DNA of 64,000 bases. It comes from Octopus vulgaris. Lineage: Eukaryota. The stretch covers positions 81,344,001 to 81,408,000 of the forward strand of contig OX597821.1 of the NCBI GenBank assembly GCA_951406725.2, written 5' to 3'. The notes under the pieces were generated by a model. That model saw only the letters and a program-made list of their open reading frames with translations, was not told the DNA's origin and did no database searches. Positions 2,546 to 63,567 of the stretch are shown here, piece after piece; positions within the stretch are counted from its first letter, which is position 1, and every line of letters begins with the position of its first letter. The position numbers were made by a program, and so were the translations under genes.

Positions 2546-5332
2546 ATCATCATTGCTTCTTCATATATATATATATGTATATAATGTAGAAAACTGAAAA
2601 AGACAAAGTGTAGAAATTGTGCTGGTAACACCATCTCAACAAACACCCAAAACTTTAGATTAGTAAGTGTAGCTACGTAGAATGTATATTTATTATTGCT
2701 CTGATTCTGTAAAAGTGAATATGCTTTCTGCATTTGTAGACGAGTGTATAATCACATATTGCATACGTGTGGGAAATGAAAATGTTTCAAGTTAATAATA
2801 ACTGTGGACAAATTACATCATGTCACTATGACATGATGTAATTAACAAATACATAATCAAAGCAAACATAAACAATGTCACACACATTGGCACAACTGTT
2901 CTATCACTAGCTACACATTATATTACATATACAGGACTGACATAAAATCACATCAATCTTAGCAGAATTTTTCCAATTAACCAAACATTGAGAAATGGCA
3001 AAAAAAAAACAAGAAGCTGCTGGAAAATTAAGAAAAATTTTTTTGTTAAAAACAGCTAATAATTGGACTTTCAAAAGTCTGAGGAAACTGTACAATATTA
3101 ATTTCAGTTGGTAATAATAATAAGAAAAAACACCAAAACACCATGAATAAAAGGCATGTACTATTGCAACTAGCTGAACTACGGGACAAGACAGATTAGT
3201 AAATGGCTTTATGAAAGAGCATACAATTCATAGAATGTTAACATGCAAAGCAAACACTAAGATTACAAAGCATACACGTGCAACAAACAGTGTATTCATC
3301 ATAATTCCATGCATTACAAGACAAACAACATCTTGTTTATTACAATCATAATATCAACTGCCACCACAAGCATTCTAGTGATATTTTTTGCTGGAAAAGT
3401 AAAATTCTCACCATCATCATCTTTATCATTAACATCATCCTCATCACCACTTTCATCATGCTGTTCTATTTCTTCCTTTGCAACTTAACCAAACTTATTT
3501 TGTGCCAACCATCTATTTCTTTGCCAACATGTCCTCCCACTCATCTCACCACATGTCTACTCTACACTAACATATTACAATGACTATATACTAATTAATC
3601 AAGGGTAACATTTTCATTCAACTGCTAATTGGTAATGATGACTTTGTCCTAATCGTTATAACATTGCTACTGAGAAACTGGTTTAAATTTGGCTTTTGGG
3701 CATTTGTACTTCCAAACTGGAAAGTGTACAAAAATGCCACTTCTATGACATTGGTTCATCTTGTCATTTTATGAGCCTGCAAAAATAATCCCTCTTGATG
3801 CTGTCTTTATTGAAATAAAGTAGCTTTCTAGAATTAAAGCATGTTATCTTCTTAATTCATCTAAACAAGGTTTGTTTCTAAGACTGAGTCATACCTCCAG
3901 TATTAGTCGTAATCTCCTATCATTCACAACTTTGAACCAACCAAATATGAACCAACAATATAGCCTCTACATGGTCAACTAGCTTATTAGAAACAGCAGT
4001 TAAACCTCTCTCAAATTACACACTGCTGTCTTAAAAAAAGGATACATTTCATAATGAAATGTGTCCTCATTATCATCATGTAATATCTGTTTTCTATGCT
4101 GGCATGGGTTAGATGGCTTGACAGGAACTGGCAAGGCCAGAGGCTGCACCTGGTTCCATGGTCTGCTTTGGCTTGGTTTCTACAGCTGGATGCCCTTCCT
4201 AATACCAATCATTTTATAGAGTATACTGGGTGCATTTTACATGGCACCAGCACCAGTGCTTTTTACATGGGATTCAGAGAATTTTACAAATTTCAAAATA
4301 AATGGTAATCTGATGGTGCAAGGTCAGGGCTATATGGTGGATGTAACTTCACTTCCCAATCAAGTTCCAATAATTTTTCACAAGTTAGCAAAGACATGTG
4401 TGGTCTAGCATTGTCATGGTGGAACACGATTCCTTTACGATTTGCCAATTCTGGCCGTTTTTCTTTGATTGCTTCCCCCAGTTTCATAGTTGTTGACAGT
4501 AAACATCTGAATTGATTGTTTGGTTCCTTGGAAGCAGCTCAAAATACACAACACCTTTGTAATCCCACCAAATTGACAGCATGATCTTTTTTTATACAAT
4601 TCAGCTTTCAATGTGGTTTGTACTGGTTCATTATGCTTGGACCATGATCGTTTTCGATTGATGTTATGGTAGACAATCCATTTTTCATCACCAGTGATGA
4701 TTCATTTCTTAAAACGGTCGATTTCATTGCGTTTGAGATACACATCACAAATAATGATTCACTGTGTTAAGTGAATCTCTTTCAATTTATATGGAACCCA
4801 AATATTGAGCTTCTTAACGAGTCCAATACATTTTAAGAGATTTCCAATTGTTGTGTGTGATACATTTAACCTCTCTGCAATCTCTCATACAGTTATATGA
4901 CAATCAGATTCAATTATGGCTTTGATTCGGTCATCATCAATTTCAGTAGGTCGATCAGAACGCTGGTCATCTTTGAGTGAAAAATCTCCAGAATGGAATT
5001 TTTCAAACCATTTCTGACCATGTACGTTCTGTTAAGCAATCACCACCAGAAACTTCACATATCTCTTTGTGAGCTTCAGCAGTTTTCTTGCCTTTACAGA
5101 AATAAAAACGCAAAATATGGTGAAAATGTTCATTTTTGCACTCCATGTTAAAATTGACACTGAACTAACAGCTGTAAACAAAAGTATGCACAATTTGCTT
5201 CTAAAGTAAGCTAACAGTAATGGCTATCAAATGTCAAAAGGTAAAAATCATAACATTGACAAAAGTCATTCAAAAATATCGTAACTCTATCTATTTGGGA
5301 AAAATGAAATTACTTTCTTGCCAACCAAATAC

Positions 5333-5408
<76 letters not shown>

Positions 5409-5596
5409 TCATTACCATTTAATGTCCACTTTTCATGGCATGGGCTAGACAGTTTGACATGGAACTGGCCAGCTGAAAGCTGTCCAAATTCCAATTGTCT
5501 GTTGTCACATGGTTTCTATGGCTGGATGCCGTTCCTAACACCAACCACTCAAACAGAGTGTGCTGGGTGCTTTTTATATGCCACCAGCATTTATAC

Positions 5597-14600: not shown

Positions 14601-17043
14601 GAGGAAATTATTTATTTCACAACTGGTTAAAAGCAGCAAAAATAATTTTCTTTTTATAATTAAAACAAAGGAATTATACTTCTTTGAGTCTACTTAATAA
14701 ATAAATAAATGCAAAAATAAAATAATTAACAATATTAAAAAGGTATAAAATAATGTGAGCATACCTGGGTTTGTGGTAAGACTATCTGTTAAGTATACTA
14801 CTAGTTTAACAAATTGTTAAATTGAAAATATACTACATTCACGCAAGCTAAATAAGCATATTATAGAATGTTACAAAGAAATACCATACATTGACTTATT
14901 TCTATAATGAACTTTGATGTAATTTCAAGCAATAATGCCAAAAAAATTTTTTTTTTCTTTTCATTAAGATCATATTTTATAGGTAATATATACAGTGACA
15001 GCAATAATAACTAACCAGCAGATGATATATGTATAGTTGATGCACATAAAGAGAACAGCAATCATAACTAAATAAAACTAAATATAATAGTTTGAACCTA
15101 CCTTGCAGAAGGTGAGTCTCTCTGTACAGAACCAAGTTGACTTTGAATTTCTTGGAGTCGACAATGATAATCCCGAGAGCTATAAGAAAAAGAAATAAAT
15201 GTTAGACTATTAATTTTAATATTGGCTTCAAATTTTGGCACAAGGCCAGTAATTTTGGTGGAGGGGGTATGTCAATTACATCAACCCCAGTGATCAACTG
15301 GTACATATTTTACCAATTTTAAGGCAGTGAGCTGGCAGAAACATTAACACACCGGGCAAAATGCCTAGAGGTATTTCGTCTGCCATTACGTTCTGAGTTC
15401 AGATACTGCCGAGGTTGACTTTGCCTTTCATCCTTTCGGGGCTGATTAAATAAGTATCAGTTAATCACTGGGGTCGATGTAATCAACTTAATCCCCTTGT
15501 CTGTCCTTGTTTGTCCCCTCTGTTTTTAGCCCCCTGTGGGCAATAAAGAAATAATTATTTTACCAACCCTGAAAGGATGAAAGGCAAAGCTGACCTCAGT
15601 AGAATTCAATTTCAGAATGTAAAGATGAATGAAATGCTGCTAATGATTCTGCCAGCTCATTACCTTACATATTACCTTACAATGTGTCAGTTATTTCACC
15701 TTTTCATCCTGTGAACATGCTTTGTTCCTTTACAAGAAAATACCTTTAATCATCATCATTTAATGAACTAGAAAAGGTGATGCTGTTTCATAAGTCTAAG
15801 ACAATCGCTGTGAGTTGATGTCTGTGTTTTCCCTGCTGGCATGGGTGGATGGTTTAACAGGAGCTGGCCAGCTTCCCAGGTTTTTGTTTGTCTATTTTAA
15901 CATGATTTCTATGGCTGGATCCCCTTCCTAATGTCAACCACTTTACAGAGTGTACTGGGTACTTTTTACGTGGCACCAGCATAGGTGCTTTTATATGGCA
16001 CTAAATCACAGAATAAAATTATAGCTACAAGTAAAAGAAATCAAGTGCTTGATCAATGAAAACCACAACCTACCATCTTAAAAAAGGAAATATACATCAG
16101 ATAATGGCAGTCTTAGATACACACAAAAAAAACAGACAGTATGTCATGGGTGGATGCACTTGATCATAAATTTGCTTGATTTGGGCTGACTAAGCACAAA
16201 ACAATAACAAAAAAACAATAAATGGTTTTATATCTCAGATATCATTAATAAAGAAGAACAACAATGAAGTGGGTCTTACCTGAGAGCATATGCAATGATG
16301 GAGCTTGGTTCTGTATCGTAGACAATAACAGGAATACGTTCACATTTAGCCAGCAGAGGATGTTCATGAGCTTCACTGAAATTAGAGAGGACAAGAAGAA
16401 ATATCACCAGGATCTCTTTTGAACAGACTCAAAATCCACAAAGAAATGTAACTAGGGATTCTTTGAATAGACTCTACATTATCTATTTGACTGGAATTAG
16501 ACAGTCTAGTCTCTTTCCTTTATCATTAAGTGGTTAGTCCTCCACATTACTTCAAAAGGGGCACAGGGCTAGTTTCAGGTTTCTCTATTGTATATCTTCC
16601 TCCCTGAACAGGACACTGGTCCCTCGCAGGATTACTCATTCTTACCAGCTGAGTGGATTAGAGCAACATGAAATGAAGTGTTTTGCTCAAGAACACGATG
16701 CATCACCTGGCCCAGGAATTGAAACCGCAATCTTATGATCATAAATCCAACACCCTAACCACCAAGCCACACGCCTCTACTTCATCATTAATTAAGTAGT
16801 AATATCTGCAGAGACACATAGTCAATGACACACGTTGTGCTGATTGATGTTATCTAACCTATATTTTGAATAACAATATTTAGTCATTAAGCAGCATAAA
16901 TTCACCACTGCTCTATTTTCACTCTCTGATCATGTAAGTCATCTATTCTACACTCTCAAAGCTATCATGGTATTCTAAACAAGAAAAGGAATAGGGGAAC
17001 TGTTGATATTGAAAAATAAGTAAACCAGTAATGTATAAGGGGA

Positions 17044-25810: not shown

Positions 25811-28800
25811 ATTGAGTCACGGTAATATAACTTGCCTACAGAAACAACATTATGGCTGTTTGAGAATTTGAACTGATGATATTCCAGTTATTAGTGGAGT
25901 TTTTTAGTTTACATATTTGAATCTCCATAATATTTTTATTACAGATTGATTTTATTAGATTTGTAAAATGGGATGAAATAACACTTACCACATCTAAAGA
26001 TGACTGATGTTCCTTCACAGCAGGGCTTTGTGTTTTGGACTTCTCTTTCTTTTGCACCAGAAAATCTTGAATTCTTCAAAGAAACAGTTTAAATTATTAT
26101 TTGTATCGTTAATTATAGCACTATTAATAACGTTAATGTATAGAACTGTGAAATATATTCAAGTTAAGCACTTGGGATATAAACTCCTACTAATGAAGTA
26201 AATATATTATTACAAAATCTAGACAAATCTGAATTCAAAGACAGGAGAGGTTATCAACTCTATGTTTGAACTTAAGGGTTCTAAGCAAGTAAAGAGTTTG
26301 TGAGCTAAATCAGAGAAATATACTCTTGCCAGGAATATATTCATTTCACAAACTGATTTGGATTAAACTTTATCATAAACTCATCATCCAAATGTTTGAG
26401 AGAAAAAATTGCTTTAGAGAGTTTGGGCTAAGACATGGCTCCTGTGCCGGTGGCACATAAAATGCACCGTACAAACATGGTCAATGCAAGTACCACCTGA
26501 CTGGTCCCATGCTGGCGGCACATAAAAAGCACCATTCGAGTGTGAGCATTGCCAGTGCTGCCTGACTGGCTCCCATTCTGCTGGCACGTAAAAGGCACTA
26601 TTTAAGCATGGCTGATGCCAGTACCGCCTGACTGGCCCACATGCCGGTGGCATGTAAAAAGCACCCACTACACTCTCAGAGTGGTTGGCATTAGGAAGGG
26701 AATCTAGCTGTAGAAACCTTGTCAGATCAGATTGGAGCCTGGAGCAGCCTTCTGGCTTGCTAGTCCTCAGTCAAACCGTCTGACCCATGCCAGCAGGGAA
26801 AGCAGACGTAAAACGATGATGATGATGGTGCTGACTGAGCAAGAACAGAGTTCACCTATTGGCCTTGTTGTTTTTGACTTTATGTTATATTTTTCTGCTG
26901 CACAATGTCAGTACTTATGCCATTTTGTAGGGTAGTGAGCTGGTAAAATTGTTATCATGCTGAGTGAAATGCTTAGTGGATATTTCATCAGTCTTTATGT
27001 TCTAAGTTCAAATTCCACTGAGACCGACTTTGTAGTTCATCCTTTCAGGGTCAAAAAAGTAAGTACTAGTTAAACACTGGGGACTATGTAACTGATTTAA
27101 CTATTCCTAGGTATGAGTATAAAAAAAGCTGCACCCCTCTGCCGACCTATGCTGAGTAGGCTCATCAAACCAGTATGATCTCAAGATCAAATACACAGTA
27201 TGCATATCAGACAATGGCTGGGTGGTAAGAATATGTTGAGGCTTTTGTCCTGCAGTGGGCTGAAAATGGGCAATCCAATCCAATCCACTGCCATTTCATA
27301 TACTTAAGAAAGCTGAATGAACTTAAGAAAATTCAAACAAATTCTTACTTTGCATTCCAGTTTACCACTGCTTCTGCAACCATCTGTGTTAAACTTGTCA
27401 GACTGTCTGCGATTTGATTGCTCAAGGAAAAACAAACTTCTGTCAAAGAGAAAACATAAAAAAGATTTTCATGAAATTGTTGTCACTGAAACCTACCCAA
27501 CAGCCACAGCTCTTTAGGTCATCTAAAGCTGCAAAGATGCAAACTAGCTGTCAATGTTGAGTTACTAGTCTTAAAAAGGTTACTCAGATTTTTAATAACT
27601 TTACTCATGCTACAAAACTGTAAAAGCACACACAAAAAAATGGCCTTACCTTCATTTTCAAATTTTCCCTCACTGTTTTTTTTACTCAATGACTCTAATA
27701 ACTGCAGTTTCTGGTGGATTTCATCAGCATGTTTATTCAGGGAAGCCCTCTCACTCTATAATTCATGACAGAAAAACAAAATCAATAATAATAGTGATTT
27801 ACGACAATAGTAAATATTTTTTGGAGGAGGGCGATAATTAATTTATAATTGACTTAATCTTATTCAATAACAGACTGGGCTTATTTTATCAAACTTTGAA
27901 GAAAGAAAAATAAAGTTAACCTTGGTGAAATTTGAACACAGAAAGTAAAGCAATGTAACTACCATATTCAATGGCATATAAGATGCACTTTTTTCTGAAA
28001 AGATACCTCAAAAAAAAAAAAAAAAAAAAAAAATCACCCTGCGTCATGTATGTGAAATTGGATTTAGATTTCATGCTTTAATGAACTCAAAACTTTTTTG
28101 TGTGAGTATGTGTATAATACATGCAATTAATTTTGATTATATTAATGTTGATGTGTTTCTCAGTTGTGGTTGTCTGTGTCTTTTTCTCATTGTTGTAGTA
28201 AAAAAAGTGTATTGTGCACAGGTCTTGATGACGTGGTGTACAGCTGTAGTGAATGGTGGACATTGTCATCATGTGGTGTGCAGTAGACAAAGGATGTATT
28301 TATGATTTAAATTATATTAAATAAATTAGTATTTAATTGTTAATACCAACAACTATAGCCAAGAGGCTTAGAAAATAATTCTTAGTAGATATAATAAAAA
28401 AATATATTGTGCACAAAAACAGACTGAATTTCATCATGGTCATGTGGTACATGGTTAAAGTAACTATGATTTATGTTTTAAATTATAAAAATTTAAAAAA
28501 TTAGTATTTAATTATTAATACTAGAGGTTATAACTAGGTGACTTGCAATATAATTTGTAGGTGATTAAAAAACTTTGCTGATATTTCCGTACTCTCACAA
28601 GTAATAATTAAAAATTAGGAAAAAATGTTTTTAATTACAATTGACCGTATCAAATTATTGTTTAGGCAACCTAATGCCTCCTTTGTTTTTCAACACATTA
28701 ACCACAAACACATGCACGAATAAACTAAAACAAAGTTCCATATACACAAGTAATGTTTTTTTTTAAATACATTAGAATGCACAAGTGCACAAGTATCTGA

Positions 28801-31800
28801 ATTGAATGCTGAGTCTACTAATGATATACCAACCCATTGGGATGGAGTTCCTTTTTCTATCAAGTTCTGACCCTGACGAAATGCTCAATTGACTATATTC
28901 AATATGAATCTTTGATTTAATTTTTCTAATTAGAATTAACTGATTGGACAGGGAAACAATTGTAGGTTCTGTGAGTTTGATATTGTTTGAAATTCGATTT
29001 GTTTCAATAAATTGATGTCTGTATGTCATTTTCACCATTTTCTTCTTTTTCTTTTATACACACACACACACATACATATACACTCACACACACTGACCTT
29101 GCCTGTGCTTGTGCCACATAAAAAGCACTCAGTCCACTCTGCTGTGTGGCTGATGTTAAGAATGGCATCCATCCATAAAAACCCTGCTAAAACAGACACA
29201 GAAGCACTTGTGCAGGTGCCACATAGAAAGCATACAGTACACTGTAAAGTGGTTGGCATTAGGAAGGGCATCAAGCTGTAGAAACCATGCTGAAACACAA
29301 TTGAGGTCTGGTGCAGCACTCTGGCTGACTCCAGTCAAACCATCCAACCCATACCAGCATGGAAAACAGACATTAAATGATGATGATGATAATGTGCTGC
29401 TGAAATTGGGATGCATATGATATGCCTATGTGATATTCATGCCATCAATTCTGTTAATATTCTACTGAGTAAAGCATCGAGCTGGCAGAAACGTTAGCAG
29501 ACCAGGTGAAATGCTCAGCGGTATTACATCTATCTACGTTCTGAATTCAAATTCCGCCAAGGTCGACTTTGCCCTTCATCCTTTCGGGGTCAATAAATTA
29601 AGTACCAGTTGACTGGCCTCCTCCTCAAAATTTTCAGGCCTTGTACCTAGAGTAGAAAAGACTATTCTACTGAGTCTATCACTTATTACTTTAAAAACAC
29701 TTACAAGAATGTTTATAATGCTTGTTTTTATACAGACATAATACTCAGTAATATTCATTTAGAAGATAAGAGAATTGGAAAGCTGACATTCATGGCTTTC
29801 CCACTTAGTAATATAAGGGAAATAGTGCTAAGTGGAATTCAAAAACAGGCTGGGAAGTCACGTCAACATACCAAAACCTCTACAGAAGAATAATAATATT
29901 TTCAAAGAAACTGCAAAAAATTTATTTCAAGTTAGATTTTTTTATAGTAAAATTATACAAAAGTAGAACAGAGTGGAAATATAAACAGAATTCACCTTCT
30001 GGAAAGCCAGATAGTCTGTGAGTATCTTTGACTGGTTCTGTTGTAAGGAGTAATCATTTTGCAGTTTGATAGTTTGCTCCCATATAGCATTGTATAAATC
30101 CATACCTCTGTAGAGAGACAGAAAACTGAATTAAAATAATCGTAAGATTAAAATATACTTTACAAATACAAATCATTCTATATTTGTGTGTGTTCATGTA
30201 TACATATGACCTTATTGTATGAAAACATTAGTGTGTTCAACAAATACTTACGGTGAACAATGAATGAAGCCCCCTCTCTCTCTCCCTATATGTGTGTGTG
30301 TGTGTATATATATATATGTAATACCGGTGAACACTGTTCTCACCATCTACACCGGATACGCCCTACTCCCTCCTCCTCCTCCCCCCTTCTCATATGCTTT
30401 CACTGTGAAAAGACAAGCTGCTAGCGCCACAGCTCATCAACTGCCCACTGATCTTACGCTTCCTCCTGACACTGCCTCAATCTGAATATCTCCTTCCAGT
30501 CCCCTCCGTAATATCCTACGTTTTTTTATTTCTTACGAACCTACACCAACCCTTCCTCCCATCGTTCCTCCTTACCCCAACCTTCCCCACTGGTGCTCCC
30601 CTATATTGACCGCACCCCCTCTACTATCACTACCCCTCTTTTCACTGGTAAAACCTTTCTCAGCTGGACTCCCCCCAACTCAACTCTAGAATATCTGTAT
30701 TTTTCCTCCTTACTACGCTACCTAATTACGTTACTCAGTGACGATAACGAATGTCCACTGCTAACACCAGCTCCTGTCCACGGCGTGGTCAGGTCGGAAG
30801 AGAGATCAAAAGAAAAATGCTACGAAAAGTATCACCACCACAACAACCCTCCTCTTCTCAGGCGCTGAATTCCCCCCTCCCCCCACATCTCCTTCCCAGT
30901 TTTCAGAGTTGGCACTATCAATGTTGGTACATTGACAGGCAAGTCTAGTGAGATTGTAGAGATGCTAGAGAGAAGACAGGTTGATGTATGCTGCATACAA
31001 GAGGTAAGATGGAGAGGTGCTTCGGCTAGGGTCCTCACGGGCAAGGCACTTAGGTACAAACTCTTCTGGCAAGGTAACGTGGAAGGTGTAGGCATTCTCC
31101 TTGCGGAGAAATGGGTGGATGAGGTCATAGAGGTTGTCAGGGTTTGCGATAGAGTGCTTAAGCTCAGGTTGGTCCTACAGAGTGGCACAGCTATGATTAT
31201 CTCCGCCTATGCCCCACAAGCGGGACTACCAAATGATCAGAAGGACAACTTTTATGATAACCTTCTGCAGGCTACTTCAAAGACTAGTAGCAAGGACCTC
31301 ATCTTTGTAGGTGGAGACTTTAATGGGCATGTTGGGCGGGAATCGGGTATCTTCACTGGGGTACATGGTGGCTATGGTATTGGCACCAGAAATGATGAGG
31401 GGAACTAGACTGCTGGAATTCTGTGATGCATGTAACCTTTCAATCTGCAACACTAACTTCAAGAAGCCAGTCTGCCACCTTATAACCTATCAGTCAAGAG
31501 ACTCCGCTAGCCAAATAGACTTCATCCTCACCAGACAGCGGGATGCAGGGTTGCTCTTGAATACAAAGACCCTCCCGGGTGAAGAATGTATCCCTCAGCA
31601 TAGACTAATCATCAGTGACTTTAAGCTTGAGGCCAGAAGGACTCCAAGAAACAAACCAATCCAGAAAAGAAGGATTTGGAGGCTAAAGAACCCTTCACAT
31701 GGTCAGAAATTTAGGGACATACTCATCAAGAAATTTGATGAGAGGGAGGAGGAGCTTCAGACGTCAGACATAGAAGGTAGCTGGGAATTCCTACGGGACA

Positions 31801-34287
31801 GCTTGCTGTGTGCCACAGACCGAGTCTGTGGATGGTGCAAAGTCCCTTCCAGACCTAGAATTACGTGGTGGTGGAATAGTGCAGTAGATAAAGCCATCTG
31901 TAAAAAGAGACGGGCCTGGAAAGCCTGGAAGGATGGGGGCAGCAGGGAACTGTACCAGATAGCCAAAAGGGAGGCTGGGCGGCAGGTATACATAGCCAAA
32001 GACGTAGCAGAAAAGAAGAAGTTTGCCAATGTCCAGCGACGCGAGGATCAAAGAGCTGAAGTATTTCGGATTGCCAGACAGTGTGTCAGAGAAAATAGTG
32101 ATGTTATAGGAGAGAAATGTGTCCGCATGGATGATGGGGCACTTGCATTTACTGCTAGTGAAAAGAAAGAGGCTTGGAGAAGCCATTATGAAAGACTGCT
32201 GAATGAGGAGAATGAATGGGAGGAGGAGAGCCTGCCAAATGTTGACCCAGTAGAGGGACCAGCTACCCGAATAGACAGCTCCCTTGTAGATAAGGCAATT
32301 AAGGATATGAAACCAGGCAAAGCCCCTGGCCTATCAGGAATCACTGCTGAGATGCTTAAAACAGCTGGCTATGTGGGCTATACCATAGTCACCCGCATTG
32401 TAAACCAGGTAGTTCACAATGGAGTCATACCCAATGACTGGTGCAGCAGCACCATAGTCAACTGCTACAAGGGTAAGGGTGATGCTCTAGATAGAAATAA
32501 CTACAGAGGTATCAAACTGTTGGACCAGGTGATGAAGGTCTCAGAGAAGGTCATAACCCATCTCATTAGGGAGAGAATTTGTTTAGATGAAATGCAGTTC
32601 GGTTTTGTACCAGGTAGAAGCACCACTGATGCTATATTCCTGGTCCGACAACTGCAGGAGAAGTACCTAGCTAAAGATAAACCCCTCTACATAGCTTTTG
32701 TAGACTTGGAGAAAGCCTTTGACAGGGTTCCCCGTTCCCTCATCTGGTGGTCGATGCGGAAACTGGAGATTGAAGAATGGCTAATAAGGGCTGTACAGGC
32801 TCTATACAGAGAGGCTGTCAGCAAGGTTAGGATTGGCAATGAATATAGTGAAGAATTCCGGGTAGAAGTAGGTGTGCACCAGGGCTCAGCCCTCAGTCCC
32901 CTTTTATTCATCATAGTCCTTCAGGCAATAACAGAGGAATTCAAAACGGGATGCCCCTGGGAGCTCCTCTATGCCGATGACCTAGCTCTCATAGCAGAAT
33001 CACTACCGGAACTAGAAGAGAAATTTCGGGTGTGGAAGCAAGGGTTGGAATCAAAAGGCCTTAGAATAAATGTAGCAAAGACCAAAGTATTAGTAAGCAG
33101 CAAGAGGTACTCAGCACACACCCCCTCGGGTAGGTGGCCCTGCTCAATCTGTAGGAAAGGTACAGGTAGAAACTCCATAAGATGCACCCAATGTAAGTTA
33201 TGGACACATAAGAGATGCAGCAACATTAAAGGGAAATTAACAGATAAGATAGCTTTCATGTGCGGCAGATGCACAGGGACAATAGACACAACAGACACTC
33301 AGAAAACAGATTCCATCACACTCCAGGGAGAGAAACTAGAAGTAGTTGATAGTTTCCGCTACCTGGGTGACCAAGTTAGTAGCGGAGGTGGATGCACAGA
33401 GTATCACCACTAGAATACGAATAGCCTGGGCAAAGTTCAGAAAGCTCCTACCCCTACTGGCAACAAAAGGTCTCTCCCTCAGAGCGAAAGGTAGATTGTA
33501 TGATGCATGTGTGCGAACTGCCATGCTTCACGGTAATGAAACATGGGCAGTGACTGCAGAGGACATGCGTAGACTTGAAAGAAATGAAGCTAGCATGATC
33601 CGCTGGATGTGTAGTGTCAGTGTGCACGCAAGACAGAGTGTAAGCATCCTAAGAGAAATGCTGGATATAAGAAGCATCAGATGTGGTGTGCAAGAGCGAC
33701 GCTTGCGATGGTATGGTCATGTGCTGCGGATGGATGAAGAGAGATGTGTGAAGAAGTGCCACTCCCAAACAGTTGAAGGTATCAGGGGGAGAGGTAGACC
33801 CAGGAAGACATGGGATGAGGTAGTCAAGCATGACCTCAGAGCATTGGGCCTCACTGAGGCAATGGCAAAAGACCGAGATCTCTGGAGTTTTGCTGTGACT
33901 GCAAAGACCCGGGCTGCTTTCTGCAGCAATTCCACATACCCCCTACCCATTCAAAGTACCCCGGATCCCCAAAGTACCCCAGATCCCCAAAGTACCCCGG
34001 ATCCCCAAAGTACCCCGGACCCAGTTGCCCCAGTGCCGCTGGCACGTTAAAAGCTCGAACCGATCGCGACCAATGCCGGACCCCCCGGCCCCTGTGCAGG
34101 TGGCACGTAAAAGCACCCAATCCACTCACGGAGTGGTTGGCGTTAGGAAGGGCATCCAGCCGTAGAAACTCTGCCAAATCAGACTGGAGCCTGGAGCGGC
34201 CCCTGGCTTTCCAGACCCCGGTCAAACCGTCCAACCCGTGCTAGCGCGGAAAACGGACGTTAAACGATGATGATGATGATGATGATG

Positions 34288-34349
<62 letters not shown>

Positions 34350-37300: not shown

Positions 37301-40300
37301 CATGTACAAAGCGTCTCACGTGATCGACCATTGGAGTGTCACAGGACTTTGATGGGCAAACATAAGACTCTCTAAACAAAAAGAAAAAAAAAGAAATGTT
37401 TAATTGATGGAAACATCCATAACAACTTTTACAATAAACATTTCTAGAGTGCAAACATCCTTATTTTAAATTTAGCTTAATCTCTTGCTTTTTCCATCAT
37501 CACCATAACTGCTATCCTCATTATCTTTGTTGGTACCATCCGCAGTGTCATTGCTGTCATGATTCCAAACATTCTCAATGTCATAATCACCATCTTCACA
37601 CTCATTGTTATAATTATTAGGGTCTTTATCATCATCACAACAATCATCACCATGACCTTCATCATCATCATCATTGTTGCAGTGGTGGTAGGGAGCAGTT
37701 GTCCTGTTGCCATTCATATAACTTTCTATCAAACCTATTATATGCCTAATGTACAATAGTTTCCCTAATGTGTTTTGAGAGGTGGGGGAGGGGCATTTAT
37801 TTAGAATTCCATAAATTATTTGATATTTTTCTGCTTTAGAAATTCTTTAAAAAATATTCAAAGACATGGCTATGTGGTTGAGAAGCCTGCTTTCCAGCTA
37901 TGAGGTCTTGCTTTCAAGAAGACACTTGCCCAAACATTTTTCGAAAATTTTCACGGAAAATTTTATCCAAAAATTTTCACCAACAATTTTTCCAAAATTT
38001 TCACCGAAAATTTTACCCAAAAATTTATCGAAAATTTCAACCAAAAATTTTTCGAAAATTTTCACCGAAAATTTTACCAAAAAATTTTCCCAAAATTTTC
38101 ACCGAAAATTTTACCCAAAAATTTTTCCAAAATTTTCACAGAAAATTTTCACCAAAAATTTTTCGAAAATTTTCCCTAAGAATTTTTCGAAAATTTCAAC
38201 CAAAAATTTTTCAAAAATTTTCACCGAAACTTTTCCCAAAAATTTTTCGAAAATTTTCACCGAAAATTCAACCCAAAAATTTTCACCAAAAATTTTTCCA
38301 GAATTTTCACCGAAAATTTTACCCAAAAATTTTTCTAAAATTTTCACCGAAAATTTTACCCAAAAATTTTTCAAAAATTTTCACCAACAATTTTTCGAAA
38401 ATTTTCACAGAAAATTTTACCATAAGAGTTTGCAAAAATTTTCCCCAAAAATTTTTCGAAAATTTTCGACAAAAATTATTCGAAAATTTTCCCCGAAAAT
38501 TTTACTCAAAAAAAAATTTTCCCCCAAAACTTTACCCAAAAGTATTCACCAACAATTTTTCGAAAATTTTCGCCAAAAATTTTTCGAAGATTTTATCCCG
38601 ACAAAGATCAAAGAGCGTGCCGACAAATATCAAAGATGGTCCCCAAAGAGATCAAAGAGGAGTGTTGACAGAGATCAAAGTGGGTGCCGACAGAGATCAA
38701 AGACGGTGCCGACAGAGATCAAAGAAGGCGCCGACAGAGGTCAAAGAGCCTGCCGACAGAGATCAAAGTGCGTGCCGAAAGAGATCAAATAGGGTGCCGA
38801 CAGAGATCAAATAGGGTGCCGACAGAGATCAAAGACGGTACCGACAGAGATCAAAGAGCGTGCCGACAGAGATCAAAGAGGTTCCTGAAAGAGATCAAAG
38901 AGAAGTGTTGACAGAGGTCAAAGAGCCTGCCGACAGAGATCAAATGCCGAAAGATATCAAAGAGGGTGTCGACAGAGAACAGAGATGGTGCCGACAGAGA
39001 TCAAAGAGGGTGCCGACAGAGATCAAAGAAGGTGCCGACAGAGATCAAAGTAGGTGCCAAAAGAGTTCAAAGAGGGTGCTGACAGAGATCAAAGAACAGT
39101 GCCGACAGAGATCAAAGACGGTCCGGAAAGAGATCATAGAGGGTGCCGACTAAGATCAAAGAGCGTGCCGACAGAGATCAAAGAGGGTGCCGACAGAGAT
39201 CAAGGAGGGTGCCGACAGAGATCAAAGTGCGTGCCGAAAGAGATCAAATAGGGTGCCGACAGAGATCAAATTGGGTGCCGATAGAGATCAAAGACGGTAC
39301 CGACAGAGATCAAAGAGCGTGCCGACAGAGATCAAAGAGGTTCCTGAAAGAGATCAAAGATGGTGCCGACAGAGACCAAAGAGGGTGTCGACAGAGATCA
39401 AAGAGTGCCGACAGAGATCAAAGAGAGTGCCGACAGAGATCAAAGAGCATGCCGAAAGAGATCAAAGAGGGTGCTGACATAGATCAAAGACGGTGCCGAA
39501 AGAGATCAAAGAAGGTGCCGACAGAGATCAAAGATGGTGCCGACAGAGATCAAAGAGCGTGCCGACAGAAATCAAAGACGGTGCCGAAAGAGATCAAAGT
39601 GAGTGCCGACTGAGATCAAAGACGGTGCCGAAAGAGTACAAAGAGGGTGCTGACAGAGATCAAAGAGGGTGCCGACAGATATCAAAGAGGGTGCCGACAG
39701 AGATCAAAGTGGGCGCCGACAGAAATCAAAGAGGGCGCCGACAGAGGTCAAAGAGCCTACCGACAGAGATCAAAGAGCATGCCGAAAGAGATCAAAGAGG
39801 GTGCCGACAGAGATCAAAGAGGGTGCCGACAGAGATCAAAGAGGGTGCCGACAGAGATCAAAGAGGATGCCGACAGTGATCAAAGAGCGAGCCGACAGAA
39901 ATTAAAGAGGAGTGTCGACAGAGATCAAAGAGGGTGCCGACAGAGATCAAAGAGAGTGCCGACAGAGATCAAAGAGCATGCCGGAAGAGATCAAAGAGGG
40001 TGCTGACATAGATCAAAACGGTGCCGACAGAGATCAAAGAAGGTGCCGACAGAGATCAAAGATGGTGCCGACAGAGATCAAAGAGCGTGCCGACAGAAAT
40101 CAAAGACGGTGCCGAAAGAGATCAAAGTGAGTGCCGACTGAGATCAAAGACGGTGCCGAAAGAGTACAAAGAGGGTGCTGACAGAGATCAAAGAGGGTGC
40201 CGACAGATATCAAAGAGGGTGCCGACAGAGATCAAAGTGGGCGCTGACTGAAATCAAAGAGGGCGCCGACAGAGGTCAAAGAGCCTACCGACAGAGATCA

Positions 40301-59300: not shown

Positions 59301-60899
59301 ATGCAGATCACTGATCAGGTTCTTATATTTGTACACCAAAAGAGATTTTCAATGAGCTGAAAGAAGTTTATGGTGATGATGCACCACCATACAACGTAGT
59401 CTAACACTGGCGTTGCTTGTTCAAATGTGGTTGGACATCGGTGGAGACTGCTCCTATTCCTGGACAACCAAATTCTGCTATTGATGACAACACCATCCAT
59501 AAAGTGGAAGCTGCCATTTTGGAGGATTGACACATAACTATTTGGCAACTAGCCCAAGAAATGAAGATAAGTGTAGGGTCCATAGAAAAAAATCATTCAT
59601 GACCATTTGCACATGCAGAAGTTGTCTGCATGATGGATTCCCAAGATGCTCACACCTTTTCAGAAGCAGGAATGAGTTAATTGCTCCTAGGCTCTTTTGG
59701 CAATGTGCCAAGAAAATGAGGAGAACTTTTACAGCAGACTTTATCACACAGGATGAAACATGGGGCCATCACTATGATCCTGAGACTAAAGTCCAGTCAA
59801 AGCAATGTTAAGCTTGGTTAGTAATAAATCAAAAACTATGACGTGCATATGTATGTATGTATGGATGGATGGATGGATGGATGCATGTATGTATCATAGC
59901 TTTTTTTTATGAAATAAGTGTAGAACTTCATAATTTATTGTTTGATGGTATTGTTTTGGTGGCACGTAAAAAGCACCATCCGTCCGTGGCCGTTTTCCAG
60001 CTCCGTCTGGCACCTGTGCGGGTGGCACGTAAAAAGCACCCACTACACTCACGGAGTGGCTGGCGTTAGGAAGGGCATCCAGCCGTAGAAACACTACCAG
60101 ATCAGACTGGGCCTGATGCAGCCTTCTGGCTTCACAGACCCCAGTTGAACCGTCCAACCCATGCTAGCATGGAAAGCAGACGCTAAATGATGATGATGAT
60201 GATGAATATGAATTCTGTACTGATCAAATTTGCTGAAACAGCCTCCAGAACTAATATTCTAATTATTTTTGTTTGCTTGTTTCTTTCTTTCTTCTTTTAT
60301 TTCTATTTTTTAAATGTATATGAGAGGGGAATTGAAATTTGAAGCTCACCTTTCGAAAAGATGCCTCAGTAAGATAACTTTTACAAATAATTAAATGATC
60401 AGATGACAACAGATGTAGAAATGAACATTTTGAACTACTACGGGTATTGTTATTGTTGATGTTCTTTCAAATGTGGTGGTGAGTGTGTGCACATATATAT
60501 CTTTATCTTTTACTTCTTTCAGTCATTAGATTACAGCCATGCTGGGGCACCACCTTGAAGAATTTTTAGGTGAATGTATCCCCCCACCCATCCAGTGCTT
60601 ACTTTTTATAAGCCTGGTACTTATTCTATCAGTCTCTTTTGCTAAACCACTAAGTTATAGGGATGTAAACACACCAGCACTGGTTGTCAAGCAGTGGTGG
60701 GGGACAAACATAGATACACATATATATATGCATATATATGATTGGCTTCTTTCAGTTTCTGTCTACCAAATCCACTCACAAGGCTTTGATCAGCCTGAGG
60801 CTATAGTAGAAGACTATAGTCCAAGGTGCCTCACATTGGGGCTGAACCCAGAACCATGTGATTGGGAAACAACCTTCTTACCACACAGTCACATCTGCA

Positions 60900-60938: not shown

Positions 60939-63567
60939 TCATCATCATCATCATCATCATCATCGTTTAACGTCCGCTTTCCATGCTAGCATGGGTTGGG
61001 CGGTTCAACTGGGGTCTGGGGAGCCCGAAGGCTGCACCAGGCCAGTCAGATCTGGCAGTGTTTCTACAGCTGGATGCCCTTCCTAACGCCAACCACTCCG
61101 AGAGTGTAGTGGGTGTTATTATGTGCCACCGACACAGGTGCCAGATGAGGCTGGCGAACGGCCACGCTCGGATGGTGTTTTTATGTGCCACCGACACTGG
61201 TGCCAGACGAGGCTGGCAGACGGCCACGCTCGGATGGTGTTTTTATGTGCCACCGACACAGGTGCCAGACTGGGAATTTTAATCTGGTTTAACACTTTTA
61301 TTACCATACTTCTACTGAAATATACTGCCTTTGCTTCAATTAAACCTGAAAATGATGAAGAATTTAAAATAATTTTGTCATTATTAAGCTGGTGCTTGAA
61401 ACAGATTAACATGAAATTTTGATGGAAATTTTAAGCTGGTTCACTGTAAAACAGAAAGTTTGCACCATCTCAGACAGGTTGGTATCAAAAGGATTAAAAC
61501 TACGACACCCTTGCTGGAAGTAGCACAAACACACAGACAGCATAGGCAGCATCAATGCTTTAACATCCAATCACCAGAAATAGTTTGGATAGGCCCATTA
61601 CATAGCATGTCACAATTCATGTTGGTCATTTATTAAATCTTCTGCATAGTCCACCATCCTGACGTTTGAATTCTTCATACTCTTCTTTGACTTCTTCAAT
61701 TTATTTCACTTCAATGAGTAGCCACCACCTACAGTACACAACACATTTTCACCCAGTGTTCAGTTTCCATTCACATCACAGGTTGATGTTAGCAAGGTTG
61801 TTTCTCCTGCACACTTCAGCCACCCGCTCAGTTCACTCTCAATCTCTGACAAAGGTAATCATTAAGAATCAAACCAAACTTCATGAGGATTAACATGGTG
61901 CTTAAAAGTGTAATTTGTTCTGCATTGGACAGCCAAAGCATGGTCCGCTCTAAACAAACCAGACGTCTAGAAATCAACCCTGTCAGACAACCTTAAGAGG
62001 AATCTTTTTTCTGTACATCAGTAGAGTCAGTCATTTTATGTGGAGCAACAGCCTGAATGTTTATCAAAAAACTGGAATCCAAGCTAGATGGAACTTACAC
62101 CGGAATGGTAAGAGCAGTCTTAGACGTGTCTTGGAGATTTGCCTGTTACCACCACTATGACAGAAAGGTGCTTGCACTTTGTAGGACATTGCTGGCATGC
62201 TAAACAAGAGCTGGCAAGTGACCTACTGCTATGGATGCCAAAGCATGGCCATACTTGAGCAGGTCATGTGAACATAGTGCATGTAGATCAACTCATCAGA
62301 GACACCAGATACTTGCCTGATGACTTCCCTCAACTAATGCAGAACCAAGATGGATGGTGTGTTAGAATTTAAAATGTCTGAGCAAGCTCAACCAGATGAT
62401 GATAATCATGATGAACATGACACATTCATAGAGAATAAAATTATAAAAATTACCTGAAGTATTAAGGGTTCCAGAGAAGAAAATTTGTTCTCAACTCGTT
62501 GATAATCAATGGCACCTTTCAACAAGAGAATTTTTGGCTTTGAGACAGTTGTCTGCATTTTCTTGTGAGCAACATTTTTGCTACAAACGACCCCATGGAT
62601 GACAGCAGTCTGATTTCTCTGACCTCCAGAAATCTAAGAAGATAATATTTGGAATTATAAACTAGAAAAACTATGCATATGCATGGATATGTATGTGTGT
62701 GTGCTTTTACAAACTAATATATAGCAACCAATTGGTAAATTGCAAACACTTTTTTGATCTGAGTCTGAGCAACATCTTAATCCCCAAAATAAAAAAAGTG
62801 AAAAAAAAATTTTCCCAAAACCTTCAAAAGATGGTCAAGACCAGAATAATAATTAAAACTTGCATCATGATAGAAACCTTGTAGCCAATTCAAACACAAT
62901 CACTTACAACCATTACATGATATGAAGACAAAGAGACAACTACACACACACACACACACACACATTATGCATATTTACATACATATATGTTTGGCGATGT
63001 AAACAAGAAAAACAGATTTCGAAACATGAGTATATATGTTTTTTTTTACTAATAATCAGAAGTTACAGAGGGGCTCAAGGGTTGAGAGTTTCATACTTGA
63101 AACCCTTGGCACTTGAATTACTCTGTAACTTTGGCCAACTATTAATAAGAAGAAAAACATATATACGAACATACATTTCTACATACATATATATCATCAT
63201 CATATTTCTATCTATGAGATCCACTCACAAGGCTTTGCTCAGTCAGGAGCTATAGTAAAAGACTAGAGCCAAAACTGGTTAGGAAGCAACACCTGCATCT
63301 ATATGTAAGTTATTTTACATGAACACTTACTAGTTGTTACTATACACTGAACATCATGAAATTTATAAGCTAAGTAAAATAACTACCTTTTTTATTTGTA
63401 CATATTTCCGTATATCCATGTCATCTCCTTCATTACGTACATCAGGACTTACAAACTGGCTGACTTTGTGGGCTGTTTGCATGATGGTGCCTTCCCAGGA
63501 GAGTGGTAAGCCTTCTTGATTGAGCAACTGGCGCACCAAGTTTGACAGATGTTCCTTATGAACTTTT
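395..63567 (-). CDS. PIKFYVE: PIKfyve/Fab1 1-phosphatidylinositol-3-phosphate 5-kinase, partial multi-exon gene (26 coding exons in window; continues beyond both ends)
   Basis: Spliced translation gives PIKfyve motifs: [133 protein letters not shown]. All introns are GT-AG and phases match. Confidence 0.97.
1007..1093 (-). CDS. PIKFYVE: PIKfyve exon: (D)[28 protein letters not shown](Q)
   Basis: cag| ... |gtaagt, 87 nt; resembles the vertebrate NPHVELQ motif. Confidence 0.9.
3412..3483 (-). CDS. Candidate acidic cassette exon of PIKfyve: (V)[23 protein letters not shown]
   Basis: aag| ... |gtgaga, 72 nt, phase 1-1, open frame that fits between exons 6813 and 1093; weak polypyrimidine tract. 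Confidence 0.35.
4288..5330 (-). mobile_element. Degenerate mariner (Tc1/mariner) transposon
   Basis: HHDNARPH and [16 protein letters not shown] motifs; mariner-type TIR at about 5305-5330; 3' end lost. Confidence 0.9.
6458..6529 (-). pseudogene. tRNA-Glu(CTC) pseudogene
   Basis: TCCCAAATGATCTAGTCGTTAGGATTCTGCACTCTCACCGCAGCAGCCAAGGTTCAATTCTCTGTTTGGAAA aligns to eukaryotic tRNA-Glu-CTC; one mismatch each in acceptor, anticodon and T stems; TTTT 6 nt downstream. Confidence 0.8.
6813..6956 (-). CDS. PIKFYVE: PIKfyve exon: (G)[21 protein letters not shown]...VESGM
   Basis: cag| ... |gtatgg, 144 nt, phase 1-1. Confidence 0.83.
8050..9050 (-). mobile_element. Highly degenerate Penelope-like RT fragment
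   Basis: Remnants [34 protein letters not shown] resemble PLE RT motifs (LPSYIKDT, MDVKSLYT, LAELVL..N.F.F). Confidence 0.65.
9071..9320 (+). mobile_element. tRNA-derived SINE family C (TGGCTTAGTGG head; GAGCAAAACACTT...ATGGACTGGCATCCCATCCAG body)
   Basis: Copies at 12212-12345(+), 13547-13760(+), 16560-16780(-), 52455-52560(+), 56927-57180(+). Confidence 0.8.
10560..11750 (-). mobile_element. Penelope-like element fragment (RT thumb plus GIY-YIG)
   Basis: [60 protein letters not shown] motifs. Confidence 0.85.
12638..12857 (+). mobile_element. tRNA-derived SINE family B (GAGCTGGCAGAA...GAGTTCAAAT...CTTTCATCCTTTCGGGG)
   Basis: Pol III A/B-box-like motifs; copies at 15322-15553(+), 22946-23110(+), 26930-27100(+), 29474-29665(+), 15222-15665(-, interrupted). 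Confidence 0.85.
13279..13373 (-). CDS. PIKFYVE: PIKfyve exon (linker): [17 protein letters not shown]...NPEQ
   Basis: cag| ... |gtaact, 95 nt, phase 2-1 bridges its neighbours. Confidence 0.75.
15102..15179 (-). CDS. PIKFYVE: PIKfyve exon: [25 protein letters not shown]
   Basis: tag| ... |gtaggt, 78 nt, phase 2-2. Confidence 0.88.
16280..16375 (-). CDS. PIKFYVE: PIKfyve exon: [31 protein letters not shown](S)
   Basis: cag| ... |gtaaga, 96 nt; [11 protein letters not shown] is a Fab1 hallmark. Confidence 0.95.
17713..17824 (-). CDS. PIKFYVE: PIKfyve exon: [22 protein letters not shown]...LRMP(F)
   Basis: tag| ... |gtgagt, 112 nt, phase 1-2. Confidence 0.85.
18096..18231. repeat. 56-bp-arm inverted repeat (hairpin)
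   Basis: 18096-18151 is complementary to 18176-18231 with few mismatches. Confidence 0.9.
19257..19412 (-). CDS. PIKFYVE: PIKfyve exon (linker): [19 protein letters not shown]...; two in-frame donors (19290 or 19257)
   Basis: tag| acceptor; donors |gtaaac (123 nt) or |gtgagt (156 nt), both phase 1. Confidence 0.72.
19743..19958. mobile_element. pogo/Tigger-like MITE
   Basis: TA|CTGTAATCCCTCG ... GAGGGATTAGTG|TA terminal inverted repeats. Confidence 0.65.
20933..21150 (-). mobile_element. LINE (CR1-like) 3' end with (ATT)n tail
   Basis: [12 protein letters not shown] terminus followed by 3' UTR and an AAT-rich tail. Confidence 0.5.
22665..22748 (-). CDS. PIKFYVE: PIKfyve exon (linker): [16 protein letters not shown]...DRTS
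   Basis: cag| ... |gtatag, 84 nt, phase 1-1. Confidence 0.75.
23145..23307 (-). CDS. PIKFYVE: PIKfyve exon (low-complexity linker): [14 protein letters not shown]...TTISA
   Basis: cag| ... |gtacgt, 163 nt, phase 0-1. Confidence 0.8.
24296..24408 (+). repeat. Perfect 35-bp tandem repeat x3.2
   Basis: AGCACTCTTCTAGTCCAAGAGACAAAAACTCTATC x3 identical. Confidence 0.95.
24850..25470 (-). mobile_element. tRNA-derived SINE family A (internal (TA/CA)n, AAAAGAGT tail)
   Basis: Same family at 1-236(+), 6019-6400(-), 17080-17240(-), 21890-22060(-), 35183-35360(-), 43897-44160(+), 44954-45130(+), 52275-52452(+), 60500-60900(-). Confidence 0.85.
25090..25277 (-). mobile_element. PLE 3'-end fragment with decayed hammerhead, inserted in the (TA)n of a SINE
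   Basis: Minus strand 25190-25226: gttt CCGACAA agagc-tcc-gctc AAAA cgt t aaac, matching a minimal type-I hammerhead with core mutations. Confidence 0.6.
25731..25806 (+). repeat. (GT)n(AG)n compound microsatellite
   Basis: Seen directly; one of many (TA)n, (CA)n and (GAT)n tracts in the window. Confidence 0.95.
25989..26073 (-). CDS. PIKFYVE: PIKfyve exon: [17 protein letters not shown]...SLDV
   Basis: aag| ... |gtaagt, 85 nt, phase 2-0. Confidence 0.82.
26436..26828 (+). mobile_element. 5'-truncated RTE 3' UTR copy with 4 tandem GGTGGCACGTAAAAAGCACC-type motifs
   Basis: Homologous to 34030-34287, ends in (GAT)n. Confidence 0.85.
27349..27439 (-). CDS. PIKFYVE: PIKfyve exon: (E)[29 protein letters not shown](K)
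   Basis: cag| ... |gtaaga, 91 nt, phase 1-2; conserved WN motif. Confidence 0.87.
27650..27755 (-). CDS. PIKFYVE: PIKfyve exon: [20 protein letters not shown]...FENE
   Basis: tag| ... |gtaagg, 106 nt, phase 0-1. Confidence 0.85.
29996..30107 (-). CDS. PIKFYVE: PIKfyve exon: [16 protein letters not shown]...LAFQK
   Basis: cag| ... |gtgaat, 112 nt, phase 2-0. Confidence 0.87.
30751..34050 (+). pseudogene. RTE ORF (APE-RT-PHD) split by about 3 frameshifts
   Basis: ORFs 30751-30948, 30932-31408, 31311-33413 and 33346-34050 join via indels in a C-run (about 30870), a G-run (about 31400) and a GA repeat (about 33398). Confidence 0.85.
33952..34022 (+). repeat. 18-bp tandem repeat x4 (CAAAGTACCCCGGATCCC) at the RTE ORF end
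   Basis: Seen directly; translates as QSTPDP x4. Confidence 0.9.
34388..35166. mobile_element. PLE-type pseudo-LTR unit (direct about 180-bp repeats plus inverted segment)
   Basis: 34443-34624 repeats at 34985-35166; perfect 36-bp inverted repeat 34391-34426/34462-34497; flanked by (TA)n. Confidence 0.6.
35554..35667 (-). CDS. PIKFYVE: PIKfyve exon: [16 protein letters not shown]...LSH(K)
   Basis: cag| ... |gtaagt, 114 nt, phase 2-2. Confidence 0.9.
35737..35915. mobile_element. Mariner-derived MITE
   Basis: TIRs ctgaaaaattcctggcttt / aaagccaggaatttttcag, TA flanks. Confidence 0.75.
35951..36129 (-). CDS. PIKFYVE: PIKfyve exon: [24 protein letters not shown]...VAYF(K)
   Basis: cag| ... 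|gtgagt, 179 nt. Confidence 0.95.
37200..37371 (-). CDS. PIKFYVE: PIKfyve exon: [23 protein letters not shown]...WSRCRKCKQ
   Basis: tag| ... |gtaatg, 172 nt. Confidence 0.95.
37935..38590 (+). repeat. AT-rich minisatellite of 12-13-bp AAAATTTT subunits (resumes at 41802-41910)
   Basis: e.g. CGAAAATTTTCAC CGAAAATTTTACC CAAAAATTTTT. Confidence 0.95.
38598..41800 (+). repeat. 22-bp satellite array, about 145 units, consensus GCCGACAGAGATCAAAGAGGGT
   Basis: Seen directly; higher-order block repeats with a 528-bp period. Confidence 0.97.
42716..43153 (-). pseudogene. Orphan intronless 145-codon reading frame with one internal TGA
   Basis: ORFs 42932-43153 and 42716-42922 are in the same frame, separated by TGA ACT TGC AAA; CpG-rich. 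Confidence 0.4.
43640..43895 (-). mobile_element. Helitron/HINE-like subterminal segment with internal duplication
   Basis: Minus strand AACCGATTTCATTCAAATTT motif of the kind seen in non-autonomous Helitron 5' regions; about 50-bp segment at 43698 repeated at 43847. Confidence 0.4.
44749..44820 (-). CDS. PIKFYVE: PIKfyve exon: [23 protein letters not shown](R)
   Basis: tag| ... |gtgagt, 72 nt, phase 2-2. Confidence 0.95.
45703..47268 (+). mobile_element. Degenerate Tc1-like transposon
   Basis: [51 protein letters not shown]; TA|CACTAGTATCCAAAAG left TIR and decayed right TIR. Confidence 0.9.
47459..47559 (-). CDS. PIKFYVE: PIKfyve exon: [33 protein letters not shown](W)
   Basis: cag| ... 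|gtaaat, 101 nt, phase 0-2. Confidence 0.94.
49537..49692 (-). CDS. PIKFYVE: PIKfyve exon: [14 protein letters not shown]...YYDQK
   Basis: tag| ... |gtgagt, 156 nt. Confidence 0.93.
51386..52240 (-). CDS. PIKFYVE: PIKfyve large exon: [26 protein letters not shown]...KDPSVQ
   Basis: cag| ... |gtaggt, 855 nt; contained in ORF 51374-52240; LSVSPY motif. Confidence 0.95.
53353..53447 (-). CDS. PIKFYVE: PIKfyve exon: (G)[31 protein letters not shown]
   Basis: aag| ... |gtaagt, 95 nt, phase 1-0; matches the KTLMFFEGC..LGCT..LRG motif. Confidence 0.92.
53578..55065 (-). mobile_element. Penelope-like element: GIY-YIG remnant between about 310-bp inverted pseudo-LTRs
   Basis: 53578-53893 is the inverted copy of 54752-55065; the internal minus strand reads [41 protein letters not shown]. 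Confidence 0.8.
55692..55818 (-). CDS. PIKFYVE: PIKfyve exon: [21 protein letters not shown]...FQLPN
   Basis: cag| ... |gtaaat, 127 nt, phase 0-1. Confidence 0.93.
57493..57712. mobile_element. piggyBac-like MITE
   Basis: TTAA|CCCTTTCATT ... AATGAAAGGG|TTAA; decayed relatives at about 7190-7360, 18640-18870, 23490-23700, 61270-61497. Confidence 0.8.
57900..58600 (-). mobile_element. Degenerate CR1/L2-group LINE C-terminal fragment
   Basis: [37 protein letters not shown] resembles the LYKAQVRP.MEY..W..LD.IQ motif. Confidence 0.55.
58845..58985 (-). CDS. PIKFYVE: PIKfyve exon: [26 protein letters not shown]...FNTKT
   Basis: tag| ... |gtaagt, 141 nt. Confidence 0.95.
59119..59810 (+). mobile_element. 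Degenerate mariner transposon, 5' half
   Basis: Left TIR after TA; remnants [34 protein letters not shown]. Confidence 0.85.
59958..60205 (+). mobile_element. 5'-truncated RTE 3' UTR copy
   Basis: Homologous to 34090-34287; (GAT)n tail. Confidence 0.85.
60936..61270 (-). mobile_element. 5'-truncated RTE 3' UTR copy with about 61-bp internal tandem units
   Basis: Reverse complement of the RTE 3' end; (CAT)n on plus strand. Older copies at about 4075-4270(-), 5407-5590(-), 15815-16000(-), 29100-29390(+), 48705-48870(-), 50105-50280(-). Confidence 0.85.
61860..62415 (+). mobile_element. Degenerate RTE-like LINE 3' fragment
   Basis: [32 protein letters not shown] remnants, GAT-rich tail. Confidence 0.55.
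62454..62633 (-). CDS. PIKFYVE: PIKfyve exon: [26 protein letters not shown]...SLEPLILQ
   Basis: tag| ... |gtaatt, 180 nt, phase 0-0. Confidence 0.95.
63387..63567 (-). CDS. PIKFYVE: PIKfyve exon: [15 protein letters not shown]...[13 protein letters not shown]
   Basis: cag| acceptor, |gtagtt donor, 181 nt, start of CCT-like domain. Confidence 0.93.

Follow-up and report, generated by a model that had tools for sequence, protein, structure and literature searches.

The RTE-type LINEs of Octopus vulgaris carry in their 3′ tail a motif that is real, selected, and lineage-restricted; both of its mutually crossing stems (S1 and S2) are conserved, whereas the base between them is not. The terminal copy holds its position, is conserved across subfamilies, and keeps its complementarity, and S2 has been lost in copies lying upstream of it. 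We regard it as an evenly balanced question whether this last 26-nt unit is a conserved cis-element, folded as one compact H-type pseudoknot, at which the reverse transcriptase (RT) binds its own RNA. The unit would fold as a single knot of 5+4 or 4+5 pairs without an L2, and in our model an A-rich L3 of 6 to 7 nt would run along the minor groove of S1. Knot, downstream block, and terminal hairpin could together form a putative binding site through which the RT picks its own RNA, protein binding being suggested by the precedent of R2 elements. The upstream copies would be by-products of repeated tandem duplication (~25, 62-66, and 100 nt), free to decay.

The motif was followed from a 64,000-nt stretch of contig OX597821.1 (the window), where it lies in the tail of a family A element whose reading frame is in three broken pieces (Table 1). 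The tail consists, in order, of one or more units, a short hairpin, a 37-nt conserved block, a variable middle hairpin, a terminal hairpin, and (GAT)n. RTE-type LINEs are defined by a single ORF with an AP endonuclease and an RT (PMC8501958; here and below, papers are cited for the portions of their text available to us). Six long copies have frames of 1,095-1,143 aa with Pfam matches to both domains, and (GAT)n, a short tandem repeat, ends 30 of 30 aligned copies; we class the element as an RTE-type LINE, a label that rests on architecture. RT frames are linked to families A and B. Family A is the youngest, at 1.2% divergence, with frames of >1,000 aa in 29 of 150 copies among the matches listed, and the short copies of the 59952/60015 type are 5′-truncated RTE elements, with an RT frame upstream in two other loci (L079 and L084). 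Identity with RTE-2_OV, whose 3′ UTR is described as mostly microsatellite, is unestablished from the portion of the supplements searched. The RT region includes a PHD-like zinc finger (frame residues 611-654 of 31311-33413) that scores below the curated cut-off of PF00628. An 18-bp repeat extends the end of the ORF (33952-34050, and likewise in loci L282-L289), and in the youngest copies the frame is shifted by a 1-nt deletion, with a new stop arising from a G-to-A change in unit 1.

Table 1. Coordinates of the element, its tail, and related copies in the window
Feature	Position	Strand	Remarks
Near-full-length RTE-type LINE, family A	30320..34288	+	96% over a 4.0-kb alignment to locus L284
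AP-type endonuclease piece	30869..31408	+	PF03372, E=8e-8
Reverse transcriptase piece with PHD-like insert	31311..33413	+	PF00078, E=1e-29; PF00628, E=1e-4
C-terminal frame	33346..34050	+	Runs through the 18-bp repeat (33952-34019) to TAA 34048-34050 inside unit 1
Upstream unit	34032..34057	+	S1 arms present, outer pair mismatched here; S2 not formable in register; contains stop codon
Predicted spacer hairpin, GCCGG/CCGGC	34075..34089	+	GCCAG/CTGGC in other families
Terminal unit, candidate H-type pseudoknot	34093..34117	+	
Parts of the terminal unit	S1 34093-97/34103-07; L1 34098; S2 34099-102/34114-17; L3 34108-13	+	
Predicted hairpin, CCACTC/GAGTGG	34122..34136	+	
Conserved block	34133..34169	+	GTGGTTGG...GGCATCC...AGAAAC
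Predicted 3′-terminal hairpin	34228..34259	+	Followed by (GAT)n tail, 34266-34288
Truncated copy, family C	26436..26834	+	Four units, 66-nt period
Old copy	29102..29394	+	~100-nt units (motif and block), GTGCCAC register
Truncated copy, family B	59952..60213	+	Two units
Truncated copy, subfamily D	60943..61266	-	Three units, 62-nt period
Old copy, subfamily F	4064..4270	-	25-nt unit period
Old truncated copy	5405..5591	-	One unit
Old copy	15906..16000	-	Overlapping short-period units, motif region only

This tail is abundant. An adjoining 16-mer has 92,446 exact matches in the 2.8-Gb genome that carries the superfamily, and a second tail 16-mer has 66,211; a profile of the tail finds 97 matches in 1.0 Mb of evenly spaced genomic stretches versus none in reversed sequence, and 110 in 1.2 Mb of the genome. 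Related tails are also present in contigs of four runs, which are silent on expression and structure, and the viral contigs searched gave no matches. The original prediction, made from the letters of the window, was right that the motif recurs, with eight matches (≤3 mismatches) in the window versus none in 100 shuffles; fuzzy search of the window recovered every copy it had cited, the unit period is 61-66 nt, and the GTGCCAC register shift is found in older subfamilies. Its wording of the motif needs amending for the unit at 34093-34117, which has four A's, not five, and thus an L3 of 6 nt, not 7. It also had older copies keeping both stems, but in the copy at 29104 the outer S2 pair is a T-T mismatch, and in the subfamily to which the 4229-4254 copy belongs S1 is only 3 bp long.

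Because mutations in dead copies are neutral, we compared subfamily consensuses. Clustering 245 terminal copies on the tail downstream of the motif gave 12 clusters, and six coherent ones (19-60 copies each) together with subfamily D supplied seven consensuses; the five copies of subfamily D had been selected on motif positions 1-5 and 11-15, which leaves position 22 as its one independent position. The six clusters left out have 1-11 copies, and those four of them that exceed a single copy differ from their consensus by 14-24%; cluster 5 has A at position 11 and cluster 12 has C at position 3, bases that would count against invariance if real. When changes are counted per region and CpG transitions ignored, the inner stem pairs show none in 12 columns (Poisson P 0.0003-0.001), the mid-tail shows 40 in 59, and the linker next to the motif 9 in 16, with the caveat that most targeted copies were found with motif-containing queries. 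The single column of L1 has three changes, the six of L3 have one, and the outer and junction positions have eight in seven columns. The block (3 changes in 38 columns) and the terminal hairpin (5 in 38) are also conserved, and the five columns 5′ of the motif show four changes among six consensuses. A unit finder, which also favours intact motifs, returned 771 units, 106 of them in a random 1 Mb versus two in reversed sequence, and in an unbiased sample the 3′ strand of S2 is present in 57 of 63 terminal matches. Judged from these consensuses, an invariance whose boundaries match the proposed H-type fold is purifying selection. It is improbable, in our view, that the motif is functionless, inherited passively in a block-captured tail and duplicated by slippage: it is conserved like the block and the terminal hairpin, whereas neighbouring columns change at 0.56-0.68 per column. 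Such an origin would nonetheless suit the absence of the motif beside the same block in distant elements (it is missing at the matching position in all six distant loci sharing the block) and the appearance of some compact pseudoknot in 11-15% of shuffles.

The pattern of change at the edges of the stems bears on the fold itself. We took two crossing stems of 5+4 or 4+5 pairs with no L2 as the nine-pair form. Junction base 11 is either G or C, and each gives nine pairs with L2=0 in clusters 1, 2, 4, and 11; the consensuses of cluster 6 (subfamily E), with U-U at the outer S2 pair, and of cluster 10 (subfamily F), with a 3-bp S1, do not form it. Where the junction is C, position 5 is freed, and it fails to pair in 12.7% of 181 units versus 2.3% of 389 units with a G junction, a contrast driven by one subfamily. 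A G junction frees position 22, which is T in subfamily D; among copies this position shows no contrast (non-G in 10.8% versus 9.9% of units). The outer S1 pair is C-G, U-G, U-A, or A-U according to class, with A-U in the first units of subfamily E versus U-A in its later units, and two further classes place A opposite G or A at the outer pair. L1 does take C, A, G, and T among the subfamily consensuses, as originally claimed, although much of the T seen at copy level is CpG decay. The motif's loop sizes satisfy the minimum loop lengths that DotKnot sets (accessible text of PMC2853144). A compact nine-pair knot with an A-rich L3 arises in 1-6 of 300 shuffles, and any compact nine-pair pseudoknot in 33-45 of 300.

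The claim that the pseudoknots are supported by variation across copies did not survive control for CpG decay. The inner pairs are invariant, with no compensatory change in any of them among the seven consensuses; double CpG decays in 169 units divide into 39 that preserve a pair and 39 that do not, and the pair-count covariation score is equalled in 80 of 500 shuffles of 13 distinct sequences, which is not significant. We therefore reject copy-level covariation, which is CpG decay on the evidence of that even split, and copy age is the most likely reason for an excess of A-U at pair 2-14 (odds ratio 5.6). Spacer and terminal hairpins make weak positive controls, because their double changes are themselves at CpG sites. 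Support from variation is limited to the junction swap that keeps nine pairs and one outer A-U/U-A swap. The stems are thus mostly kept in the sense of sequence invariance, not of compensation, and the compact H-type fold draws on the limits of conservation, the variability of L1, and the junction swap, not on variation among copies. There is a wider caution here, in that apparent covariation among dead transposon copies was fully accounted for by CpG decay.

Energy estimates that assume an initiation penalty of 7-9.6 kcal/mol and a weight for coaxial stacking, with neither a tertiary bonus nor upstream units, place the knot at -1.9 to +5.4 kcal/mol relative to the best nested fold overall. 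The range is -1.9 to +3.1 kcal/mol in A, B, C, and F (+0.5 to +3.1 in A, the youngest family) and +2.6 to +5.4 kcal/mol in E and the old cluster O under these penalties, and the estimated stability of the pseudoknot would be only on par with that of nested folds. The 5′ half of the motif is near-palindromic, and mutual pairing of neighbouring units is predicted. It is possible, if rather unlikely, that an RTE or host protein reads the unit as a conserved sequence or as a simple hairpin (S1 or S2, depending on the subfamily), with the crossing complementarity following from internal GTGC/GCAC repeats. Nested models give P(S1)=0.99 in family C and P(S2)=0.66-0.72 in B and O, the motif stems show no covariation, and the invariant inner columns and conserved A-run would fit sequence-specific reading. 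This reading leaves unexplained, however, why hypervariability is confined to L1, why conservation ends at the helix ends, and why position 5 changes mainly once freed by the junction swap. A single pseudoknot in the terminal unit is plausible, unproven, and at about even odds.

The original prediction had tandem pseudoknots at 34030..34120, and extended this to functional arrays of two to four. Neither claim fits the upstream units. In family A the upstream unit (34032-34057) reads GCTG versus CTCG, leaving no S2 in register; the change G11A is also found in 9 of 25 loci, and 8 of 8 long family A copies have the end of their ORF within this unit, six of them at the TGA made by G11A. Of the non-terminal matches in the unbiased sample, 58 of 100 retain the 3′ strand of S2; the 42 misses include chance and reverse-strand matches, and about 12 upstream units of C type share one subfamily-level loss. 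The array claim is unsupported because upstream units have lost S2 in at least two subfamilies, the youngest included. Since family A has one intact unit only and its upstream unit has lost S2, one unit appears sufficient, and the extra tandem copies of the motif look dispensable. We accordingly give little credence to an array of two to four pseudoknots that would serve RT recognition or RNA stability through multivalency, and the degenerate first units of family B also speak against it. That family does have about 3-6 units, mostly intact, and the duplications, which come in three unit sizes, all share the motif: ~25 nt in subfamily F (motif alone), 62-66 nt in A, B, C, and D (motif and spacer hairpin), and ~100 nt in E (motif and block). 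Some tail units have expanded into minisatellites, with a 101-nt unit repeated about 25 times and a 25-nt unit in long runs (C8:6001841-6004566, C7:14391800-14393894, and locus L225).

Luteoviral frameshift pseudoknots, to which the motif had been likened, have a 2-nt L1 with a protonated C and a 1-nt interhelix loop, whereas the RTE motif has one variable base as its L1 and no interhelix loop. In contrast to those knots, which sit in coding sequence downstream of a slippery site, the terminal unit lies outside the coding sequence in families A and B and has no fixed relation to a reading frame; the ORF stops in unit 1 in family A versus well over 100 nt 5′ of the first unit in family B. With a non-coding terminal unit at a family-dependent distance from the stop, recoding is unlikely. 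The likeness holds only for a compact H-type fold with a 4-5-bp S1 and an A-rich loop crossing S1, but the luteoviral S2 has 3 bp and that of the RTE motif 4-5 bp (PMC3835772, in part). CPK-1 pseudoknots resemble the motif in their L1 of 1-2 nt, lack of an interhelix loop, and coaxial stems, and differ in an S2 of 6-7 bp as against 4-5 bp (same portion of PMC3835772). The preQ1-I aptamer, the other proposed relative, shares the H-type fold and an A-rich L3 against the S1 minor groove, but according to the available text of PMC7641330 it needs a ligand-reading L2 with a specificity C; the RTE motif has no ligand pocket, because it has neither an L2 loop nor a specificity base. Searching Rfam gave no match to the motif at gathering thresholds or at E up to 10, and no known RNA family or ribozyme, apart from tRNA, in the window or in five distant loci. 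Nor does a description of the motif occur in the full-text literature we could search (including the available parts of PMC4758252, PMC4824008, and PMC9115989, and exclusive of Repbase, subscription journals, and some supplements).

The best precedent is the 3′ UTR pseudoknot of A-clade R2. There, in the accessible portion of PMC12180492, protein domains clamp the pseudoknot and compensatory mutation rescues activity, and a pseudoknot-hinge-stem arrangement also appears in that of PMC12222951. Both elements are non-LTR retrotransposons with a 3′ UTR pseudoknot, in the RTE element a candidate one, 5′ of a terminal stem, for which a role in helping the RT protein recognise its template is proposed, and this analogy makes template recognition the main candidate, and most likely, role of the motif. 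The R2 knot, located in the last 65 nt, is known from cryo-EM and from rescue by compensatory mutation (PMC12180492, same portion); unlike it, the RTE knot is predicted only, has its 3′ end ~150 nt from the tail, is part of an RTE-type element with an AP endonuclease, and has been duplicated in tandem. In the literature found, R2 elements are the only ones with a structurally shown 3′ UTR pseudoknot, and if the RTE fold holds, recognition of the template through a pseudoknot in the tail would also be found in an AP-endonuclease LINE, one present in this genome in roughly 10^5 copies. The young family with intact frames makes the fold directly testable. More speculatively, and with considerable doubt, RTE-type LINEs may have independently evolved an R2-like 3′ UTR pseudoknot that serves template recognition, a minimal 26-nt coaxial form whose junction base can hand a pair from S1 to S2, grafted before a former 5′-UTR domain and open to tandem amplification that would tune RT binding.

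RT stalling at the motif was looked for in the 5′ ends of copies. Out of 172 copies we kept 38 clean 5′ ends, two duplicates among them; the other 134 were set aside because of low identity, an element-like flank, position at a locus edge, or similar. None of the 38 falls at the 3′ base of the motif, and the division between motif and spacer is 6:14 (p=0.37), with no motif-end excess either after correction by eye of about three mislabelled motif ends. Genome-wide, 229 of 33,149 (TA)-flanked ends lie in the 3′ half of the motif versus 550 of 46,094 just downstream, a comparison in which the subfamily mixes differ. RT stalling at the motif is thus unsupported by 5′ ends, in the sample or genome-wide. 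Separately, 5′ ends cluster at ~34126-34144, just 5′ of AGGAAGGG, with 10 of the 38 clean ends there and none in the next ~78 nt; genome-wide the cluster is 1.7-fold above the 3′ half of the motif. A single cleavage site at the block is rejected, because the ends spread over ~14 nt.

The block has a history of its own. It stands directly 5′ of a homologous endonuclease frame (48% identity, E=8e-41) in a related LINE, L161, and it occurs inside a tRNA-headed SINE-like repeat (L162-L165); at the 5′ ends of eight family A copies it is absent. Besides the copy in Table 1, it is found at L161 569-598 and in L162-L166, the SINE-like repeat being from other organisms. It has no Rfam match, its core word turned up in the literature only in two unrelated papers, and it did not match the named SINE domains in the sources at hand, including part of the MetaSINE paper. 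Bipartite tails derived from RTE elements were described by Kojima 2018 (PMC5786205, in part), and the tail here likewise joins a block, 5′-UTR-located in L161, to an RTE-type 3′ terminal hairpin; unlike those tails, the composite here is the 3′ UTR of an autonomous element. In the supplement text of PMC5786205 that was available the block was not found, and it was not matched to a named domain. The places of the block in L161 and in the SINE-like repeat, and its absence from the family A 5′ ends, suggest, on one 5′-located example, a captured bipartite tail of the kind described there. About 95 nt 5′ of the block, the 5′ UTR of L161 has another possible pseudoknot (7-bp S1, 4-bp S2); relaxed pseudoknot criteria also match other loci. 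The contigs holding L161-L165 are filed as bacterial MAGs and contain animal-type retroelement sequence, probably through contamination.

Elsewhere in the window, a 22-bp satellite of ~146 copies (38598-41800) has repeats of A/T runs on its flanks, the whole spanning 37929-41907. A tRNA-like Rfam match at 6458-6529 on the minus strand, which ARAGORN does not call, is possibly the head of a SINE, and a 290-aa open frame at 51374-52246 on the minus strand, of ordinary composition and with no Pfam match, is possibly a host exon.
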